From the NCBI GenBank assembly GCA_963976765.1, contig CAXBME010000003.1:186001-250000 (forward strand): 64,000 bases of DNA, written 5' to 3'. The notes below the pieces were generated by a model that saw only the letters and a program-made list of their open reading frames with translations, was not told the DNA's origin and did no database searches. Position 1 is the first letter of the stretch. Each line of letters begins with the position of its first letter. The stretch is from an uncultured Planctomycetaceae bacterium (lineage in GTDB: Bacteria; Planctomycetota; Planctomycetia; Planctomycetales; Planctomycetaceae). Positions 747-14,981 of the stretch are shown piece after piece. The translations under genes were made by a program, and so were the position numbers.

Positions 747-5432
<4,686 letters not shown>

Positions 5433-5588
5433 CGAAATACTCTCGCTTTACTAACTTACTGCTTACGATGCGTCTTGTTTGCTTTCGTGCTCGTCGAGAA
5501 TCTCTTCGTGAGACGCTCTTCAAACTGGCAAGGCCGGACCTTCTGATTCACAGAAATCAGAAGGGAGACCGGTCTTCCGCTTCAACGA

Positions 5589-6569
5589 TCATGCTGAAGC
5601 ATTTTCTTTTCGGTCGCGATTCCCTGCGCGATCCTCGCGGGAAGACTTTTGATGATCAGTGTCCCGCAGCGAATTCAGGTTTTCATGGATCAACTCCACA
5701 AACCTGTTGGCTGCGTTACTGAGCCTTCGATTCCGCTTATGAATGATGCCGAGCGGCCTGAACCACTCGACGTTTGAAAGTTTGAGACTGACCAATGTGC
5801 CGGTCTCAACACTCCGCTTTACAGTTGCTTCTGGAAGCAACGCAACTCCGACGCCGTCTTCAACCGCTCGCCGGACCTGTTCCACGTTGTCGAATTCGTG
5901 AATCACGTTCGGGGAAACTCCCGCCTCACGCAGCCAACGATCGAGCTGATTTCTGACCCTCAGCTCAGACGTAAAGTTCACGAAGTCCTCATCCTGGATC
6001 GCCTCAATCGGTGCGGAATCGTACCCTTCGGATGCTCGTTTCGCCAGCGGATGGTCTGGATGGACAATCAGAGCGATTGGCTGCTCCTGCCAGGGAATCG
6101 TTGCGAATTCCGACGTATCTTCCGGAAAGGAGACGAGACCAATATCAGCACTTTCTGAACGAATTCGTTCGTAAACTTGATCCGGGTGAACATAGTCAAC
6201 CCGCAGTTCAACGTCCGGATAGGCATCTTCAAAATGATGAACGTACAAGTCCATCTGCAAAAGACCGACTGAGTAAATCGCGGCGACTCTGAGCCGGCCT
6301 GCGACGCTGCCTGCGAGTTGTCGGACCTCTGCCTCCAGCCTCTCGAATCCGGTCAGCAGTTCGCGACACCCGTCAAAATAATGCTGCCCGGCTGGTGTCA
6401 GAGCCAGTGGCCGGTGACTCCGGTCGATCAGTTCAATTCCGAGCTGCTTTTCGAGGTGTGCAACTGCCTGGCTGACGGTCGACTGGGACACTCCCTGCCG
6501 CTCCGCCGCTTTCGAAAAGTTGCGGCACTCTGCGACTTCGCAGAAGAGCTCGAAATTGCGAAACGACAT
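5589..6569 (-). CDS. LysR-family transcriptional regulator
   Basis: N-terminal LysR HTH (NFSKAAERQGVSQSTVSQAVAHLEKQLGIELIDR...LTPAG) plus substrate-binding domain; upstream of and co-oriented with gltB. Start placed at MSFRNF (alternative 6581). Confidence 0.95.
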   Translation of the reverse strand: MSFRNFELFCEVAECRNFSKAAERQGVSQSTVSQAVAHLEKQLGIELIDRSHRPLALTPAGQHYFDGCRELLTGFERLEAEVRQLAGSVAGRLRVAAIYSVGLLQMDLYVHHFEDAYPDVELRVDYVHPDQVYERIRSESADIGLVSFPEDTSEFATIPWQEQPIALIVHPDHPLAKRASEGYDSAPIEAIQDEDFVNFTSELRVRNQLDRWLREAGVSPNVIHEFDNVEQVRRAVEDGVGVALLPEATVKRSVETGTLVSLKLSNVEWFRPLGIIHKRNRRLSNAANRFVELIHENLNSLRDTDHQKSSREDRAGNRDRKENASA

Positions 6570-6888
6570 TGGCGAGAACAATATAAGAGAACGTTAATAT
6601 CAACCAGGCGATATATTGAAAAACTCAAATAACGATAAGCAGGCCCTGCTGGGCCGTCAAGTATGCACTGACTTCGTCAGGAAACGCGGCGACTTTGTGA
6701 ATGCTCGCCGGACTGAATTTTTCAATTGATTATTTTCAGTTTCGAGTGATGCCAAAGCTGAGTGTACAAAATTGTCAGACACTTGATTATTTGGAATTGT
6801 ATGTTCAGACTCGCCCTGCACTGCACATCGTCGCGAACCTGTGTCAGTGGTCAGAGTGGCTTGAATTGGATAGACGGGACTGCAATCA

Positions 6889-7224
6889 ATGCCGGATATC
6901 ATGATCGAGGTCTGGGATGCGACAGGCAACAAGCGCCAGCAGGTGGAAGTTCCCGTCGATTCTGAAGTGAACCGTGTGATCGCGGTTCTTGTTGACCGAA
7001 TGACGCTGCCGCGGCATAGCCCGGACGGCCAGATGATGAGTTACAAATTTCATCATAAGGCCAGTGGTCGACAGCTTCTCGACACGCAGACGCTCGCCGA
7101 CGCGGGTGTTTCGAACGGCGACATTCTCAGGTTACAACCGGAGATCACTGCGGGAGGGCATGTCCCTCTTCCTGCCAGAAATGCAGATTTGGGCTCAGCC
7201 AGCTCAGGTCGTCGTCATGTCTGA
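6889..7224 (+). CDS. Ubiquitin-like beta-grasp protein (YukD/EsaB-like) with G89-G90 and a 21-aa C-terminal extension
   Basis: Pattern ...SGRQLLDTQTLADAGVSNGDILRLQPEITAGG parallels ubiquitin's GKQLEDGRTLSDYNI...TLHLVLRLRGG; first gene of the cluster, directly upstream of the E1. Confidence 0.88.
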   Translation: MPDIMIEVWDATGNKRQQVEVPVDSEVNRVIAVLVDRMTLPRHSPDGQMMSYKFHHKASGRQLLDTQTLADAGVSNGDILRLQPEITAGGHVPLPARNADLGSASSGRRHV

Positions 7225-8404
7225 CATCATCCGGCTGACCGCCGAAGAAGAAGAAGAAGACGGGCGTTTCTCCCGCTTCGAACTGATCAGCTGGTGGGAT
7301 CAGGATCGTCTGTCGAATGCTCGTGTCGTCGTGATTGGCGCCGGCGCGTTGGGGAATGAGTTACTGAAGAATCTGGCTCTACTGGGAGTCGGGAACGTCT
7401 TCATCGCGGACCTCGATCGGATCGAAAAGTCGAATCTTTCCCGCTCGATTCTTTACCGCGAATCCGACTGCGGACGCATGAAAGCCGACGTTGCAGCGGA
7501 ACGAGCCAGCGAGATTTACTCCGGGCTTCGTACCCAGTCGTTCGTTGGCAACGTTGTGCATGACCTGGGACTTGGCCTGTACCGCTGGGCAGACGTGATT
7601 CTGGGCGGTCTCGATAATCGGGAAGCACGAGTATCGATCAACCAGTCCGCCGCTCGCGTTGGCAAAGTCTGGATTGACGGAGCGATTGAGCGGCTGGATG
7701 GCGTCGCCCGTGTTTTTGACGCAGCCACCGGGCCGTGTTACGAATGTACGATGAGCGATGTTGACTGGAAGATGCTCGAAGCTCGTCGGAGCTGCGCGCT
7801 GTTGACTCGCGAGGAAATGGATCAGGGCAAAGTCCCCACCACACCGACGACCGCGTCCGTCGTCGCCGGCATTCAGACTCAGGAAGCGGTCAAGCTGATT
7901 CACGGGATGCAGACGCTGAGCGGTCAGGGATTCGTATTCGACGGAATGTGGCATCAGAGTTACGTCGTCAACTATACGAAGCTCGACGACTGCCCGGCTC
8001 ACGAATCTTTCGACTCGGTGGAAGAACTGCCGCTGAAAGTTGCTGAAACGCGTGTCGGCGATTTTCTGGAACGCGCGCGGCGCGATGTCGGCCCGCAGGC
8101 GGTGATCGAGGTGAACAGCGACTTGCTGGAATCTCTGACCTGCACGTCGTGCGGCAGGACCGAGCCGATGCACAACTCGCTCGGAAAAGTTACGGAGTCC
8201 CAGGGACGCTGCCCCGGCTGCGGGGAGAACAGAACGCCCAACGTGTACCACACAATCGGCGATCAGACTGCACTTCTCGACTGCACACTGGCCGAGCTGG
8301 GTGTGCCACCGTGGGACATTCTGACCGGTCGCGAAGGACTCAAGCAGAAGCATTACGAATTCAGCGGCGATCGAGAACTGGTCCTGGGGGTGCTCGCACA
8401 TTAG
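7217..8404 (+). CDS. E1-like Ubl-activating enzyme (ThiF/MoeB/UBA family) with an extended C-terminus
   Basis: GAGALG nucleotide-binding loop, DLDRIEKSNLSRS, DVILGGLDNREAR, PCYEC zinc motif, putative catalytic Cys193 (RRSC), extra CTSC/CPGC zinc ribbon. Start reassigned to ATG 7217, overlapping the Ubl stop (ATGTCTGA). Confidence 0.93.
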   Translation: MSDIIRLTAEEEEEDGRFSRFELISWWDQDRLSNARVVVIGAGALGNELLKNLALLGVGNVFIADLDRIEKSNLSRSILYRESDCGRMKADVAAERASEIYSGLRTQSFVGNVVHDLGLGLYRWADVILGGLDNREARVSINQSAARVGKVWIDGAIERLDGVARVFDAATGPCYECTMSDVDWKMLEARRSCALLTREEMDQGKVPTTPTTASVVAGIQTQEAVKLIHGMQTLSGQGFVFDGMWHQSYVVNYTKLDDCPAHESFDSVEELPLKVAETRVGDFLERARRDVGPQAVIEVNSDLLESLTCTSCGRTEPMHNSLGKVTESQGRCPGCGENRTPNVYHTIGDQTALLDCTLAELGVPPWDILTGREGLKQKHYEFSGDRELVLGVLAH

Positions 8405-8495: not shown

Positions 8496-9773
8496 ATGAC
8501 AAAACTCGACGTGACGCAGCTCACGAAGGAAAGTTTGTCGTCCGGATTATTTCCGGCCAGCATGGCGAGCGATTTTCGCCTGTTCTTCCAGCCGGAAGTT
8601 CATACGGAAATTCTCTCGCACGCCGGTGAGGATACGTCGTTCGAAATCTGCGGCATTCTGGTTGGCCGATGGGAGAACGACAGCAACGGTCCTTATGCCG
8701 TCATTTCGAATCGAATTCGCTGTGACAATGCCAGCAGCAAACTGGCCGAAGTGACGTTTACCCACGAATCGTGGGCTCAGATCAATCAGGAAATGGATAC
8801 GAAGTACAGCGATCTGAGAATCATCGGCTGGTACCACTCGCACCCCGACTTCGGCATCTTCCTGTCAGACAGAGATGTCTTCATTCAGGAGAACTTTTTC
8901 TCCGGAGCCGGACAGGTGGCGTTTGTTGTCGACCCGGTTCGGAAAACCGAAGGTGTCTTCGAGTGGCGTAATGGCAAACCCGAGCTGATGTCGCAGTATT
9001 GGGTCGGTAATTCGATCGTGCCTAAAGCTGCCAGCGGAGCCGATGGAATTGTTGCCGCTCGACCAGCTCGCGAGTCGAGAGCTTCGGAGACGCCCGCAGC
9101 AGTTTCACAATCGCATCAGCAGACCTCAGCGGCGCAGGAATCGTCGCTGAGTGTGATGACAACCGTGCTCGGCTGGAGCTGCCTGTTTCTGCTGGGGTAT
9201 TTGCTGGCTTCGCAGCGCAGCAGTTGGGAGCAAACAATGCTGCGCGATGGCGCCGTCGCTCATTACGGACTGTGGAATCTACTGAAGCCCGGATGGGAAG
9301 AGGAGCTGCTGGAAGCACGGTCGGATCTCGACAGCATCGTGAACGACCTGAAAACTCTTTCGGACGATCACGTCAGTTTGAGCGATGGCGACAAAAAAGA
9401 GCTGCGTAACAAGTGGTTGACTATTCGCAAAAAAGTGGCTGCCTCGCAGAAGACGCTTTCCAGCGTGGAAGCGCGCTACGGGCTCAGCAAAGAAGAAAAG
9501 CAGGTCGTCGCGCTGGTGATGTCGCAGAGGCTGGCGGAGATATCCGGTGTCGCTGATCCGGCATTACCGTCTCTTGACCCGCGACTTTCGACACCGCCGC
9601 CTCGATCTGTCGACGACAATAGTTCGAGCCAATCGACAACAAGACCGGCACCTTTAAAGCCGACAACGACGAAATCAGAGCCGGCGGCAAAAAACTTGTC
9701 TGAACGTCGATCGAAACCAGCGAGTCCGGAACCGGCCGGCCCCAAACCGCCGGGAGCGACAAATTCAGAGTAA
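8496..9773 (+). CDS. JAB/MPN+ (JAMM) metallo-isopeptidase with one TM helix, a helical region and a Pro/Ser-rich tail
   Basis: Catalytic Glu in FEICGILVG and complete JAMM motif GWYHSHPDFGIFLSDRD (HxH-x7-S-x2-D); hydrophobic segment VMTTVLGWSCLFLLGYLLA. Confidence 0.92.
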   Translation: MTKLDVTQLTKESLSSGLFPASMASDFRLFFQPEVHTEILSHAGEDTSFEICGILVGRWENDSNGPYAVISNRIRCDNASSKLAEVTFTHESWAQINQEMDTKYSDLRIIGWYHSHPDFGIFLSDRDVFIQENFFSGAGQVAFVVDPVRKTEGVFEWRNGKPELMSQYWVGNSIVPKAASGADGIVAARPARESRASETPAAVSQSHQQTSAAQESSLSVMTTVLGWSCLFLLGYLLASQRSSWEQTMLRDGAVAHYGLWNLLKPGWEEELLEARSDLDSIVNDLKTLSDDHVSLSDGDKKELRNKWLTIRKKVAASQKTLSSVEARYGLSKEEKQVVALVMSQRLAEISGVADPALPSLDPRLSTPPPRSVDDNSSSQSTTRPAPLKPTTTKSEPAAKNLSERRSKPASPEPAGPKPPGATNSE

Positions 9774-9860: not shown

Positions 9861-10928
9861 GTGGCGGACGAAAAGCAAAGCTTGAAAATCACCGCAGCCG
9901 ATCTGCAGGCACCGGTTGTCGAGGAGTATCTCGAAACTCAATCGTGGTTGCAGAAGGATCTCGGCGACATTCAGGAACAGTCCTGGGTCGTGCGAGTTGT
10001 ATATGCCAACTGGTTTTACCTGGCCATCTGCAGTGCCATCGGAGGGATCATCGGCTGGGCGGTGATCGAACCGTTCTTCAGTGACGATCCACTGGTCGAA
10101 GACACCGCCGCCGCTCTGCTGATGTTTCCGGTTGTGGCCGGAAGTATCGGACTGTTTCTGGGAGCGGCGGAAGGGATCATGTGTCGAAACATCACCCGCG
10201 CCTGTGTCAGTGGTGGCGTTGGTCTGGCGGTCGGATTCGCCGGAGGACTGGTTGCCATCATCCCGACCGGGATCATTTTTTCGCTGATGACTGCGATCGC
10301 GTTCAACTTCTGGGAGAACCCCCAGGTGGACGAAATGCCAACCGGTTTTGCATTGCTTATTCTGATGATGGGGCGAGCTGCCGCCTGGTCGGTTGCCGCG
10401 ATTCCTGCCGGCATCGGTCAGGGCACTGCGCTGCGTGAGAAAAAAGTGGTTCTTAATGGCCTGATTGGTGGAGTGCTCGGCGGCCTGGTCGGCGGATTAT
10501 TGTTTGACCCGATCAGCCTCGTTCTGGTCACTGACTCCGGCGAAGCGGCCTACAGTCGTGCTGTCGGATTTGCAGTCATTGGCATGTCGGTCGGGTTGTT
10601 CGTCGGTCTTGTGGAAGGATGGACCCGCACGGCCTGGCTACTCATGAAGAAAGGACCGCTGGCCGGGAAGCAGTTCGTATTGTTCAAGGATGCCACGATT
10701 CTGGGGAGTTCACCCAAGGCCGAAATCTACCTTTTCAAAGACGACGCCATCGAGCCGAAGCACGCTGTGATTTACAACCGCGGAGGACGTTTTGAGATCG
10801 AAGATCAGAATACCCCCGACGGCCTCTACGTGAACGGCATTCCGGTCACCACGCAAATCCTGAAGAGTGGCGACCAGATCGTGCTCGGAAAAACGGTCCT
10901 GGAATTCACGCTGCGGGACACCGATTGA
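9861..10928 (+). CDS. Multi-pass membrane protein with a C-terminal FHA-fold domain
   Basis: About six Gly-rich hydrophobic segments followed by ...TILGSSPKAEIYL...EPKHAVI...IEDQNTPDGLYVNG...LKSGDQIVLG, the FHA pattern. Confidence 0.85.
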   Translation: MADEKQSLKITAADLQAPVVEEYLETQSWLQKDLGDIQEQSWVVRVVYANWFYLAICSAIGGIIGWAVIEPFFSDDPLVEDTAAALLMFPVVAGSIGLFLGAAEGIMCRNITRACVSGGVGLAVGFAGGLVAIIPTGIIFSLMTAIAFNFWENPQVDEMPTGFALLILMMGRAAAWSVAAIPAGIGQGTALREKKVVLNGLIGGVLGGLVGGLLFDPISLVLVTDSGEAAYSRAVGFAVIGMSVGLFVGLVEGWTRTAWLLMKKGPLAGKQFVLFKDATILGSSPKAEIYLFKDDAIEPKHAVIYNRGGRFEIEDQNTPDGLYVNGIPVTTQILKSGDQIVLGKTVLEFTLRDTD

Positions 10929-11057
10929 TGACGCACGCCTCACGCCGCCCGAACGGCATTGCGGTGTCGTTCAGACGAATGCCCGGCAACTCAAACAACG
11001 TTGAAGTCTTAATAATCTCTGATGCCTCACCAGTAGAACTCAAAGGAGCCTGCCCGG

Positions 11058-11606
11058 CCGATCAACGTAACGTGTAATTCCTGCGGAAAATCGCTCAAGG
11101 CCAAAGACTCGGCGGCGGGCAAGCGAGTGAAATGTCCCCAGTGTGGAGACCCGATCAGTATTCCGGATGCGGTTTACGACGCGGAAGAAGTCGGCGGAGG
11201 CGATGAATACTCAGACGACAATTATGGCGATGACTACGGAGATGGGCAGTACGACTACGATGTCTCCAGCGCTCCAGCGGCTGAAAACCGAAAGCCTTGT
11301 CCTGCCTGTGGCGAGATGATCGTCGACGGGGCGGTTAAATGTCGTTTCTGTGGTGAAATCTTTGATGCCGCGTTGAAAAAGAAATCGCGGAAGTCAAAGT
11401 CGGGCGGAGGCGGCGACGACGATGACATGACCACAGGCGACTGGGTTGTCGCGTGTCTGTGTGCAAATATTGGGTGTATTGCCGGCATCGTCTGGATGAT
11501 TCAGGGGAAACCTAAAGGCGTGAAGATGCTTGGCGTCTCGTTCGTCATGCAGTTTGTTTGGGGAGCGATTATCCAGGTCATCAAGATGGCTCAACAGGGA
11601 ATGTAG
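11058..11606 (+). CDS. Double zinc-ribbon membrane protein (start codon unresolved)
   Basis: Frame open from 11037: PINVTCNSCGKSLKAKDSAAGKRVKCPQC, acidic linker, CPAC...CRFC, C-terminal hydrophobic hairpin. The first canonical start (GTG 11127) falls inside the first zinc ribbon. Confidence 0.8.
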   Translation, partial: PINVTCNSCGKSLKAKDSAAGKRVKCPQCGDPISIPDAVYDAEEVGGGDEYSDDNYGDDYGDGQYDYDVSSAPAAENRKPCPACGEMIVDGAVKCRFCGEIFDAALKKKSRKSKSGGGGDDDDMTTGDWVVACLCANIGCIAGIVWMIQGKPKGVKMLGVSFVMQFVWGAIIQVIKMAQQGM

Positions 11607-11611
11607 TTCGC

Positions 11612-12316
11612 ATGGCCGAGTCCGTTGTTGATTGCGAATGCGGCGCCCGAGTCCGCTTGCGCGAGTCATCCCGGCGTCAGGTTCGCTGCCCGAAATGCAG
11701 TGGCGACCTGGCGTTGACTCGTGACGGTCGGGTTGTGCCGTCGTTCAAAGTGGCTACCGGCGAGTCGCAGCCGCTATGCCCCATTTGTCAGACAGGTGTC
11801 ACGGCTGAGGAACTGTGTGTCTCGTGTCCCGAGTGTGCTCAGACTCACCATCGCGAGTGCTGGTGGGAGATGGCCGGTTGCGGAACTTACGGTTGTAAAG
11901 AGGCGCCGGCGGTCGAGAAATCTGAGACCGCTGTCGACACTCCGCTGGCAGCGTGGGGTGATACCAAAAGCTGTCCTGCGTGCGGCGAAGAGATTAAGTC
12001 GATCGCTCTTCGATGCCGTTTCTGCAAAACCAACTTTGATACCGTGGATCCATTGACGGTAACGGATCTGCGGCGGCAGGCCGTTCGCGATGAGAAGGTC
12101 GACAAACTTCAAAAGTCTCTGGTCGCGACTTTCGTCGTCAGCCTGATCGGATGCCTGGCCCCGCTCATGTTGATTATCAGTTGTGTGCTGGTACTGCCAA
12201 ACCGGGATAGTCTGGCGAAATCCAGCCCGCTGTACTGGGTCATGGGTTATGCGTCGCTGGGGCTTTCGGCAATCTATACCGTGCTGATGCTCCTGTTTTT
12301 CCTTGCCGAGTTGTAA
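11612..12316 (+). CDS. Zinc ribbon + prokaryotic RING-like finger + zinc ribbon + 2 TM helices (candidate E3)
   Basis: CEC...CPKC; CPICQ-x11-CPEC-x3-HHRECW...GCGTYGC RING-like ligand pattern; CPAC...CRFC; two C-terminal hydrophobic helices. ATG 11612 lies 5 nt after the previous stop. Confidence 0.82.
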   Translation: MAESVVDCECGARVRLRESSRRQVRCPKCSGDLALTRDGRVVPSFKVATGESQPLCPICQTGVTAEELCVSCPECAQTHHRECWWEMAGCGTYGCKEAPAVEKSETAVDTPLAAWGDTKSCPACGEEIKSIALRCRFCKTNFDTVDPLTVTDLRRQAVRDEKVDKLQKSLVATFVVSLIGCLAPLMLIISCVLVLPNRDSLAKSSPLYWVMGYASLGLSAIYTVLMLLFFLAEL

Positions 12317-12394: not shown

Positions 12395-13696
12395 ATGAAA
12401 CCGCCTGCTCACATTTCCGTCGCAGGTCTGCATGAATCGGGAGTGGTGTGTCCACACTGCAACCGCGAGATTGTGCGTGGTGAGAAAACCGTGCAATGTT
12501 CCGACTGTGGAGACGTTCAACACTGGTCGTGCTGGAATTCCGGCAACGGCTGCGGCTCGTACGATTGCAGCACCGGGTACGCAGGACATTCCTGTGATGA
12601 GAACGCCGAAGCTGTTTTAAGAATTACGAGTGACGAGGTCCGAAACGCAGTCCCCCTTGCTTCAGGAATTTCCGGGAGTTATCGCGGTCCGGCAATCTCG
12701 ATACCCGTCGGCCCCGGAGTCGAGTCAGACCGTTGGAACCGCCTGGCGATCGTGTCATTCGTCGTGGCGATACTTGGCATTCCGCTGTTCGGAATTGTCA
12801 CAGGTCTGGTTGCCGTTGTGCTGGGAGGGCTGGCGCTGGTGGGGAAACATTCTCTCAAGCGACGGGGAGCCGGGCTGGCCGCTGGCGGAATTCTGCTGGG
12901 CATAGCCGACTTTGCGGGGTGGTCGATTGTGTTGTTTCAGATGGGCGGCGCGCCTGGCGTGGGGCTTGCGCTGGACATCGACGAGTTCGAGCCTGACCCG
13001 GTCGCACTGGAAGCACTGCCCGACCACCTCAACCGCGCGATGATGGCCAACGTGCTGATTCAAGTTCAGCAGGGGATGGATAATCTCTGGGGCTCGGCAA
13101 TCGGTTCCGGAGTGATTCTTCGCATTGTTGATGGTTCGGCTCTGATCGTGACGAACCGTCATGTGGTCGATGCGAACTTTCCTGGCAGCAGTTCTGACGA
13201 AATTGCCGACTCCGGCAAAGGAGACACGTTACGGATCAAACTGGTCGGACAACCCAACGTGATCGGAAAAATTGTCTGGCTGGCTGGTGGCGGGATCGAC
13301 CTGGCGTTGATTCGAGCACCGGTGACATCCAACAAGGCGCTGACTGCCTGGTGGGACGCTACTCCGCGGGCTGCGGTGGGAGATCCCGTCTTCGCAGTCG
13401 GCAACCCGCACGGCCTTGGCTGGACGCTCACTCGTGGAGATGTTTCGCAACTTCGCCGACAGAACTATGGCGGTTCCACGCTTCGAGTCGTTCAAACCAG
13501 CGCCGCGATCAACCCCGGCAACAGCGGCGGAGGACTCTATGATGAAAGCGGCCACCTGATCGGCATCAACACATGGACTCGTGACAAGCGATTTGCGGAA
13601 GGGCTTGGATTTGCAATTTCTTTTCAGGAACTGCTGCCGCTGGTGCCCGACCATCTCGAACTGCCGGACAGCCAACTGGAGGACAACACGCCATGA
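12395..13696 (+). CDS. RING-like finger + DUF4190-like TM region + trypsin-like serine protease
   Basis: CPHC...CSDC...QHWSCW...GCGSYDC; hydrophobic LAIVSFVVAILG.../GLAAGGILLG...; protease motifs GSGV, VTNRHVV (His), IDLAL (Asp), AVGNP, INPGNSGG (Ser). Confidence 0.9.
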   Translation: MKPPAHISVAGLHESGVVCPHCNREIVRGEKTVQCSDCGDVQHWSCWNSGNGCGSYDCSTGYAGHSCDENAEAVLRITSDEVRNAVPLASGISGSYRGPAISIPVGPGVESDRWNRLAIVSFVVAILGIPLFGIVTGLVAVVLGGLALVGKHSLKRRGAGLAAGGILLGIADFAGWSIVLFQMGGAPGVGLALDIDEFEPDPVALEALPDHLNRAMMANVLIQVQQGMDNLWGSAIGSGVILRIVDGSALIVTNRHVVDANFPGSSSDEIADSGKGDTLRIKLVGQPNVIGKIVWLAGGGIDLALIRAPVTSNKALTAWWDATPRAAVGDPVFAVGNPHGLGWTLTRGDVSQLRRQNYGGSTLRVVQTSAAINPGNSGGGLYDESGHLIGINTWTRDKRFAEGLGFAISFQELLPLVPDHLELPDSQLEDNTP

Positions 13697-14541
13697 GCAC
13701 TGTTCGTTTGCGGAGACTGACCGCCGACTATGCACGTCTGAAGGAATACACAAAAAGTCATCCGCGGTTGAAGTTAATGCAGACCGACGGCGATCCGCCC
13801 GAGCGTTACCACATCGAGTACCGCATTCGCAGTCTGCGACAGGTCGATGGCGACATGCGGATTATCAAAAGCCACACCGTGGAGATTCTGCTGCCCAGAA
13901 ACTACCCGCGAACGCCGCCACAGTGCCGCATGTTGACTCCCGTGTTTCATCCGAACATCGCGCCACACGCGATCTGCGTCGGTGATCACTGGAGTCCTGG
14001 TGAATCACTCGAATCACTTGTGGGCCGGATCGGCGAGATGCTGGCGTACCAGAGTTACAACGTAAAAAGCCCGCTCAACGGCGAGGCCGCAAGGTGGGTT
14101 GTTGAGCACGAAGACGAGCTGCCGCTCGATCCGGTCAGCATGATTATCGACGAGTCTCGCCTGGAAGGCATGACTCCGGTAACCGTTCCCGTCGCATCAT
14201 CGGTTGAACTTCCAGAACCCTCGCCGCCTGCCGTTGACTCGGCGCCGCCATCTGAAACTTACAGCGTCAATTACGTGGAGCGGTTTTCGGGCGCGTCCTC
14301 AAACAATGCGCAGGCCGGAACAGCAACCAGCGTAGTTTCGAACCAAGGGGCCGCGCCGAAACGGAGTCACGCACCGCAGCAGGTTTCGTCTGAGGTCGAC
14401 AGGAAGCCAGAGACGCTGGTCGCTCAATGCCCCGCATGTCGCCGGAAATACCGGGTTCCGGTAACCGCCGCTGGTCGAAAAGCCAACTGTTCCGAATGCG
14501 ACAGCGTCTTCCAGATCCCGCCACTATCTGAACCGAACTAA
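13693..14541 (+). CDS. E2 ubiquitin-conjugating (UBC-fold) enzyme with a C-terminal zinc ribbon
   Basis: RLRRLTADY helix 1, PRNYPRTPP, VFHPNIAPHAIC (Cys95), WSP, SPLNGEAA; C-terminal CPAC...CSEC. ATGA overlap with the upstream gene. Confidence 0.93.
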   Translation: MSTVRLRRLTADYARLKEYTKSHPRLKLMQTDGDPPERYHIEYRIRSLRQVDGDMRIIKSHTVEILLPRNYPRTPPQCRMLTPVFHPNIAPHAICVGDHWSPGESLESLVGRIGEMLAYQSYNVKSPLNGEAARWVVEHEDELPLDPVSMIIDESRLEGMTPVTVPVASSVELPEPSPPAVDSAPPSETYSVNYVERFSGASSNNAQAGTATSVVSNQGAAPKRSHAPQQVSSEVDRKPETLVAQCPACRRKYRVPVTAAGRKANCSECDSVFQIPPLSEPN

Positions 14542-14981
14542 TGGAAGTCGACGAGCGAAGACTGCGGAAGCTACGCAATCACCATCGTGTGATGCTGGCA
14601 ATTTATGCGATGGTCATCGTCCTGATGTTTCTGCTGGAAGTCAGAAGCGACCAGCGCGTCGAGTTCCTCTTTCTCCCCGGAGTTCCTTTACCGGAAAGCT
14701 GCCTGAGTCGCGGCTGGTTCGAACTCGACTGCCCCGGCTGCGGGCTGACTCGCAGCTTCATCTACCTGGCGGCAGGCAGGATTGCGGATTCATGGTCGGC
14801 CAACCGCGTAGGCTGGCTACTGCTGCTGGCTGTGCTGCTCCAGTTTCCGTACCGAGCGATGGCTCTAAGGAATCTTGCTCATGGCTATGAGCAACCTTTT
14901 TCCAGATGGCACACGCCGTTCTCAGCCATCCTGATCGTTGCTTTGATCTCCAACTGGCTGCTGAAAATTTCCGGCCACTGA
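14541..14981 (+). CDS. DUF2752-like membrane protein
   Basis: PESCLSRGWFELDCPGCGLTRSF motif with three hydrophobic segments; TAATG stop/start overlap with the E2. Confidence 0.85.
   Translation: MEVDERRLRKLRNHHRVMLAIYAMVIVLMFLLEVRSDQRVEFLFLPGVPLPESCLSRGWFELDCPGCGLTRSFIYLAAGRIADSWSANRVGWLLLLAVLLQFPYRAMALRNLAHGYEQPFSRWHTPFSAILIVALISNWLLKISGH

Follow-up and report, generated by a model that had tools for sequence, protein, structure and literature searches.

The window, by which we mean the whole stretch of 64,000 nucleotides of planctomycete DNA that was analysed, carries an operon coding for nine proteins, which opens with the gene of a ubiquitin-like protein (Ubl) and continues with those of an E1, a JAB metallopeptidase, membrane, RING and zinc-ribbon proteins and an E2 (Table 1). 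This gene order recurs in related loci, mostly of planctomycetes and in a few other phyla, and its distribution is patchy: 13 of the 61 genomes around the host genome gave matches, several of them only distant, and in the family of G061 matches were found in 26 of 121 genomes. The host genome itself holds one Ubl, one JAB and one E2 match of this operon kind. The divergent region upstream (747-6581) bears what we take, by eye, to be a LysR-type regulator and the large subunit of glutamate synthase, a context that recurs only in L001 and L002, the two closest relatives, among the best 80 of 156 loci.

Table 1. Features of the Ubl operon in the window, with the evidence for each.
Feature	Coordinates	Strand	Evidence and remarks
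Ubl ORF, 111 aa	6889-7224	+	Gly89-Gly90 codons 7153-7158; stop TGA 7222-7224
Predicted mature ubiquitin-like domain, Met1-Gly89	6889..7155	+	Pfam YukD E 1.8e-9; model; Foldseek; ubiquitin alignment
Predicted tail, Gly90-Val111 (22 residues), and stop	7156..7224	+	disordered, unconserved; 8-nt overlap with E1 start
E1, ThiF-type adenylation enzyme	7217..8404	+	Pfam ThiF E 1.1e-50; homologues align from the same ATG
JAB/JAMM metallopeptidase; E50, H114, H116, S124, D127	8496..9773	+	Pfam JAB E 3.1e-12
Six-helix membrane protein with C-terminal FHA domain	9861..10928	+	Pfam FHA E 1.9e-11; hydropathy
Zinc-ribbon membrane protein	11055..11606	+	Pfam Zn_Ribbon_1 E 1.2e-5
Prokaryotic RING family 1 protein, two membrane helices, candidate E3	11612..12316	+	Pfam Prok-RING_1 E 4.9e-7, above cut-off
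RING-DUF4190-trypsin-like protease fusion	12395..13696	+	Prok-RING_1 E 1.6e-6 and DUF4190 E 2.2e-8, both just below the Pfam cut-off; Trypsin_2 E 2.6e-21
E2 (UBC fold), HPN motif, Cys95, C-terminal zinc ribbon	13693..14541	+	Pfam UQ_con E 3.2e-11
DUF2752 membrane protein, last operon gene	14541..14981	+	Pfam E 2e-14; recurs behind E2 in related loci

Cys193 of the E1, the likely thioester cysteine, is kept in all 74 loci aligned at that site, and Cys95 of the E2 in all 39 loci aligned there. At the start of the zinc-ribbon gene (11043-11060) the sequence AAGGAG lies six bases ahead of a CGG that takes the place of the ATG or GTG of the homologues. None of the usual start codons occurs ahead of the first CxxC, and a contig of run X1 (10909-11211) has the same letters in this region; the CGG could be either a lost start codon or a site of unusual initiation. 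In the close relative L002 the JAB gene is followed by the RING-trypsin gene, the FHA, zinc-ribbon and first RING genes being undetected between them. A second Ubl subfamily of 40-44% identity (L087, L088, L089, L090 and L092) ends in PEVVAG, PEIVAG or PEATAG, with tails of 0, 11, 0, 2 and 0 residues, respectively; by eye, the next ORFs in L088 and L089 resemble an E2 and then an E1, and a RING-like ORF lies upstream in L088.

The identical Ubl sequence of 111 residues is on record on three contigs, and a contig of run X2, which may be the source sample and not an independent one, matches positions 6924-7178 without difference or indel; runs X3 and X4, with their small shares, contribute no further information. 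Decay of the gene was ruled out, as its core shows 28 synonymous to 0 non-synonymous changes against L001 and 32 to 2 against L002, and an assembly error in the tail was ruled out because the tails of L001 and L002 are equally long. The structural model has the beta-grasp fold, with a pLDDT of 89-95 over residues 1-80; it is devoid of secondary structure past residue 86 and its pLDDT falls to 52-56 beyond residue 90. The top Foldseek match of this model is the Caldiarchaeum ubiquitin bound to an Rpn11 homologue (6FNO, E 3.8e-6), and 8TYX, from the BilA system, is also among the fold matches.

Where does the mature Ubl end? Ubiquitin, NEDD8, SUMO and the archaeal CsUb are di-glycine modifiers, with a conserved Gly-Gly at the mature end, and the sequence-only reading had seen such a motif in Gly89-Gly90, masked by 21 residues whose last codons overlap the E1 start, with cuts after either glycine possible. 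The ORF, the two glycine codons, the 21 residues beyond Gly90 and the overlap (the stop TGA runs 8 nt past the E1 ATG at 7217) are as that reading described them; the di-glycine, however, is not what the family conserves. The alignment of homologues proposed as a check shows conservation ending at the AG: PEITAG, with Gly89 as its last residue, occurs in 121 of 121 proteins (the query and the best 120 of 2496 matches) and in 81 of 81 loci (the window and the best 80 of 156), while residue 90 is Gly in 25 of the same 120 protein matches and 24 of the same 80 loci, and Ser in L001 and L002. A stop codon lies directly behind Gly89 in 11 of the 81 loci, a count taken from loci because the four of the 120 proteins that end at Gly89 may be contig-end truncations, and 3 of the 5 copies in the more distant subfamily (L087, L089 and L092) also stop there. 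In an ungapped and weak profile alignment (best E 0.004, on polyubiquitin), family residues 59-90 pair with ubiquitin 46-77, so that Ala88-Gly89 corresponds to Gly75-Gly76. The family thus ends in Ala-Gly in place of the Gly-Gly of the di-glycine modifiers; its invariant Gly matches ubiquitin Gly76 in register, and the extension beyond that Gly is not conserved. Since Gly89 is invariant and Gly90 is not conserved, we take the masked end to be the single Gly89 and the tail to comprise 22 residues, of which Gly90 is the first. In favour of a cut behind Gly90 in this strain, which would yield a ubiquitin-like Gly-Gly end, the sequence does read AGG, and few residues are commoner than Gly at position 90. 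We consider such a cut extremely unlikely, given that the closest relatives carry Ser90 while their cores differ by only 0-2 residues, that the ubiquitin register assigns residue 90 to Met1 of the next unit, and that small residues are generally favoured behind the cut site. The two bonds are then not equivalent: PEITAG conservation, the tail-less stops and the ubiquitin register all favour Gly89.

A tail is present in 70 of the 81 loci (the window and the best 80 of 156), and its length ranges from 0 to 60 residues in the best 120 of 2496 matches. By codon position (1/2/3), the window differs from L001 at 1/0/28 sites in the core and at 10/3/8 in the first 20 tail codons (Fisher p 6e-6), and from L002 at 0/1/33 and 13/11/11 (p 5e-9); L081 and L083, whose tails duplicate those of L001 and L002, were left out of the count. 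The end of the tail is partly conserved in the closest clade, and that segment coincides with the E1 start region. Judged by this pattern of substitution, the tail would be spacer DNA that is read through, its peptide showing no sign of selection beyond the first residue. Tail absence takes at least 4 changes on a 68-row tree, which is a quick tree without bootstrap that omits 13 of the 81 loci (no long E1 match or cut by the contig end). In 29 of 56 tailed, unfused loci the end of the Ubl gene overlaps the next start codon, and so read-through may serve translational coupling as a side benefit. That the tail is selected for such coupling is unsupported, since stops in the Ubl frame are not depleted in the spacers (44, 28 and 38 stops in frames 0, 1 and 2, with about 1200 codons each). 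A longer E1 starting within the tail, at the ATGs found +4 and +25 from Gly89, was ruled out, these ATGs being missing in L001 and L002.

The first tail residue is strongly biased. From the composition of positions 2-10 one would expect Pro, Asp, Glu or Lys directly behind Gly89 in 19 of the 136 short tails, 36 of the 91 fusions and 15.6 of the 69 loci; the observed counts are 1, 0 and 0. Gly, Ala or Ser is enriched there (90/136, 50/91 and 48/69, respectively), and the three sets overlap. These statistics cover the best-scoring part of each list and ignore kinship save for a parsimony count, by which the first tail residue has undergone at least 32 changes on the 68-row tree; the chance that 32 draws would yield none of the four residues lies between 0.008 and 0.0003. 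Where Ala-Gly occurs elsewhere in the same loci, Pro, Asp, Glu and Lys come next in 5-6% of cases each. A relic of a former stop codon was rejected as the source of the bias, since a stop is a single step away in 10 of 69 cases, compared with 96 of 390 background ones. As indirect evidence, the bias points to a protease that cuts the bond behind Gly89. For CsRpn11, the Rpn11-like JAMM of Caldiarchaeum, Gly at the position behind the cut speeds cleavage and Glu blocks it (PMC6043591).

The likely enzyme is the operon JAB. Its motif (E50/H114/H116/S124/D127) is intact in 72 of the 72 loci where a JAB was found, and of the 67 loci whose downstream sequence extends for 3.5 kb or more, 64 contain the enzyme; each of the three loci with room and no JAB has one elsewhere in its genome (E about 1e-75). 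In L034, L046 and L052 the Ubl lies away from the JAB, which sits elsewhere in the genome, and the Ubls of L034 and L046 are tail-less and also separated from the E1. The closest sequences in the PDB are an archaeal Rpn11 homologue (6FJV/6FJU, E 3.7e-11) and yeast Rpn11. The intact motif, the Rpn11-type structural matches and the first-residue bias together support the earlier proposal that the Ubl is a pro-protein and the operon JAB its likely maturase. Hydropathy predicts one membrane helix in the JAB (220-238), and by a crude hydropathy cut-off 56 of 64 complete JAB homologues have one; on this prediction the Ubl probably matures at the membrane. Since 9 of the 11 tail-less loci likewise have an intact JAB, the enzyme must have another job, in our view probably that of taking the tag off targets, and its presence alone is no proof of a maturation role. 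Cleavage by CsRpn11 is far slower when its substrate carries the Gly77Ala mutation (PMC6043591); as the Ubl family has Ala at the corresponding position, the operon JAB would have to be adapted to Ala.

The operon also encodes a trypsin-like domain, and in Bub systems BubE, a protease that is not a JAMM, is a further enzyme that cuts Ubl fusions (PMC11601596). A housekeeping peptidase or the trypsin-like protease of the operon might instead remove the tail, with the JAB confined to conjugates. This we hold to be very unlikely: the trypsin domain lies behind membrane helices and, from hydropathy, probably faces the periplasm, it is undetected in some tailed, JAB-bearing loci (L062, L077 and L079, for example), and the bias at the first tail residue fits a JAMM. 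We favour maturation by the operon JAB, and our reading of the sequence comparisons, at a probability of roughly 0.78, is that the pro-Ubl is most likely cut after Gly89 by this enzyme, in a step that would be obligatory and constitutive.

The last point bears on the activation checkpoint that the sequence-only reading had placed at the membrane. There the tail would be a regulatory pro-peptide, and the membrane JAB would cut on a signal, for example from the FHA or RING partners, and so switch conjugation on. Most loci have a tail (70/81), any tail sequence would block the E1, which makes a neutral sequence compatible with gating, and the predicted JAB helix, here and in the 56 of 64 complete homologues by the crude cut-off, agrees with the membrane part of the proposal. 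The regulatory part finds no such agreement. Tail-less Ubls share the operon and, in 9 of 11 loci, an intact JAB, and with at least 4 changes in tail absence on the tree several lineages would work without a gate; tails of 0-60 residues drift in length and in sequence like non-coding DNA; and the characterised JAMM partners cut in vitro without an activator. A gate of this kind is thus unlikely, and we retain constitutive trimming by the JAB as the preferred reading.

In some relatives the reading frame runs on into a neighbouring gene. Among the 120 listed of the 205 matches to a search for longer proteins, the Ubl is in frame with a zinc-ribbon/DUF4190 membrane protein in 77 (within P0124-P0238; one, P0138, is the named Aquisphaera giovannonii OJF2_27250) and with its own E1 in 14, two of them fragments (the 14 include P0183, P0209, P0211, P0212 and P0214). 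All 14 Ubl-E1 fusions have Ala directly behind Gly89, and the E1 fusion of L054 has Arg. Among the genome loci, 5 of 81 carry membrane fusions (L026, L028, L039, L045 and L051) and 1 of 81 an E1 fusion (L054), and an intact JAB accompanies all six; the family of G061 gives 6/26 and 1/26, figures that overlap with the fusions of the 81 loci. In other loci the same membrane gene is separate, directly behind the Ubl and with its own start codon, and the host genome has, on another contig, a 47% identical relative. A tree of the 89-residue domain, which has low resolution, requires at least 7 changes for the membrane fusions and at least 6 for the E1 fusions, the shuffled means being 63 and 14, and fusion in this family is thus clustered but labile. 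Among the linkers of the 77 membrane fusions, 30 have no Met and 3 have no Met, Val or Leu; as one of these residues is found in most linkers, an internal start is possible in most membrane fusions. The 235-aa Aquisphaera fusion P0138 has two Met residues in its linker; the linker of the L045 fusion contains no start codon. In two Ubl-membrane fusions, P0226 and P0230, Arg replaces Gly89, and these may be sequencing errors, dead copies or uncleavable variants.

Maturation of a pro-Ubl by a JAMM enzyme is already known from other microbes and is by now ordinary. In the type II BilABCD system, the JAMM peptidase BilC cuts BilA after Gly97, where a variable extension of up to nine residues follows, and BilA ends in Ala-Gly (PMC10557695). 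The window system is similar in its Ala-Gly Ubl, in the short variable extension that the operon JAB would remove and in the catalytic cysteines of E1 and E2. In contrast, Bil operons have the order Ubl-E2-DUB-E1 without an E3 (PMC11601596) and an E1 with two adenylation domains, whereas the window has the order Ubl-E1-JAB-FHA-RINGs-E2, one ThiF domain in its E1, a JAB with a predicted membrane anchor and, in relatives, extensions that reach 60 residues or comprise a whole protein; PADLOC left the Ubl and the E2 unmatched and gave only a partial BilD match for the E1. Similarly, in Caldiarchaeum subterraneum, whose proteins are the best PDB matches for the window JAB and for the Ubl fold, CsRpn11 removes a 9-residue pro-peptide from CsUb ahead of the E1, uncut pro-ubiquitin is not activated (PMC5654768), and an E1-E2-RING set completes the system (PMC6043591, PMC5654768). 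CsUb is archaeal and has a Gly-Gly end and a 9-residue pro-peptide, whereas the window Ubl is YukD-like with an Ala-Gly end and its JAB and RING proteins have predicted membrane helices.

Other systems join a Ubl to a second protein. In type I Bub systems the Ubl-E2 fusion BubAB is cut by the JAMM domain of BubCD (PMC11601596), so that a Ubl made in one chain with an enzyme of its pathway and released by a JAMM offers a precedent for the Ubl-E1 fusions of the relatives. Bub systems differ in working through Tyr/Ser oxyesters, with an E1 and an E2 that lack a catalytic Cys, and in having DUF6527, for which no Pfam match was found among the nine operon proteins; the window has the invariant Cys193 and Cys95, and the fusion partner in its relatives is the E1 or a membrane protein. 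Eukaryotic ubiquitin is also made as fusion precursors, ubiquitin-L40 and ubiquitin-S27 (PMC4197634), which, like the relatives' Ubl-zinc ribbon-DUF4190 proteins, hold the tag and a second protein in one chain that is, or would be, split behind the terminal Gly. The partners are not homologous, and the eukaryotic precursors are fixed and ancient, whereas the bacterial fusions are lineage-restricted, labile and absent from the window. That JABs release fused Ubls was proposed by Iyer in 2006 (PMC1779556). In type VII secretion, ESAT-6 and FtsK-like ATPase genes lie near YukD/EsaB (PMC1779556); neither was found among the nine operon proteins scanned.

To which class does the window operon belong? 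Burroughs, Iyer and Aravind reportedly predicted in 2011 operons of the type Ub-E1-E2-RING-JAB in Planctomycetes, Actinobacteria and Acidobacteria. In two later papers the operon class in Planctomycetes is credited to that work (PMC4197634, PMC3417536), and by their account the gene set and the phylum are the same as here. Genes for Ubl, E1, E2, JAB and Prok-RING do stand together in the window operon, which, by the class definition given in the citing papers, very probably makes it a member of the Burroughs class. A literature search in which subscription journals were thinly covered returned no experimental study of such a Ubl-E1-E2-RING-JAB operon and no mention of Ubl-DUF4190 or Ubl-E1 fusions, which the supplements of the 2011 paper may list. 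From these comparisons, the window system would work like BilA/BilC and CsUb/CsRpn11, yet it is no member of Bil or Bub.

We propose that the Ubl gene encodes a pro-Ubl with Gly89 as its working end. The zinc JAB would sit in the inner membrane, its catalytic domain facing the cell interior, where it would bind the folded Ubl and cut the Gly89-Gly90 bond; the E1 would then adenylate Gly89, load the Ubl on Cys193 and hand it to Cys95 of the E2. Membrane RING proteins would probably choose the targets, and the JAB would probably also remove the tag. The comparisons above show the register, the conservation, the neutral drift of the tail, the intact catalytic motifs and the fusions; from them we infer that the bond is cut, which enzyme does so, and that the Ubl is conjugated to targets. 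If the JAB recognises the folded Ubl and accepts nearly any sequence past Gly89, nothing fixes the position of the stop codon, and lineages would come to have no tail, a short junk tail or read-through into the next gene; the tail in the window would be former spacer DNA translated until the TGA that lies within the E1 start.

What may the fusions mean for the family? One possibility, to which we give slightly less than even odds, is that we see a bacterial counterpart of the ubiquitin-fusion genes in the making, in which the Ubl gene has repeatedly swallowed its neighbour because the JAB trims whatever lies past Gly89, and in which some lineages make the tag only as Ubl-E1 or as Ubl-zinc ribbon-DUF4190, a pro-tag tethered to the membrane. 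If this is true, the membrane JAB would free tag and partner one to one at the membrane, the partner would gain a new N-terminus, and maturation would be a real, localised control point in the fusion lineages, though not in the window. For the tag of a complete bacterial Ubl-E1-E2-RING-JAB operon, our analysis now fixes the end at Gly89, with an Ala-Gly remnant, and anyone reconstituting the system should express Ubl 1-89 rather than 1-90 or the full gene. More generally, pro-forms of ubiquitin-like proteins may arise without design, since with a tolerant isopeptidase the stop codon can move, and both junk tails and true fusion precursors can result.
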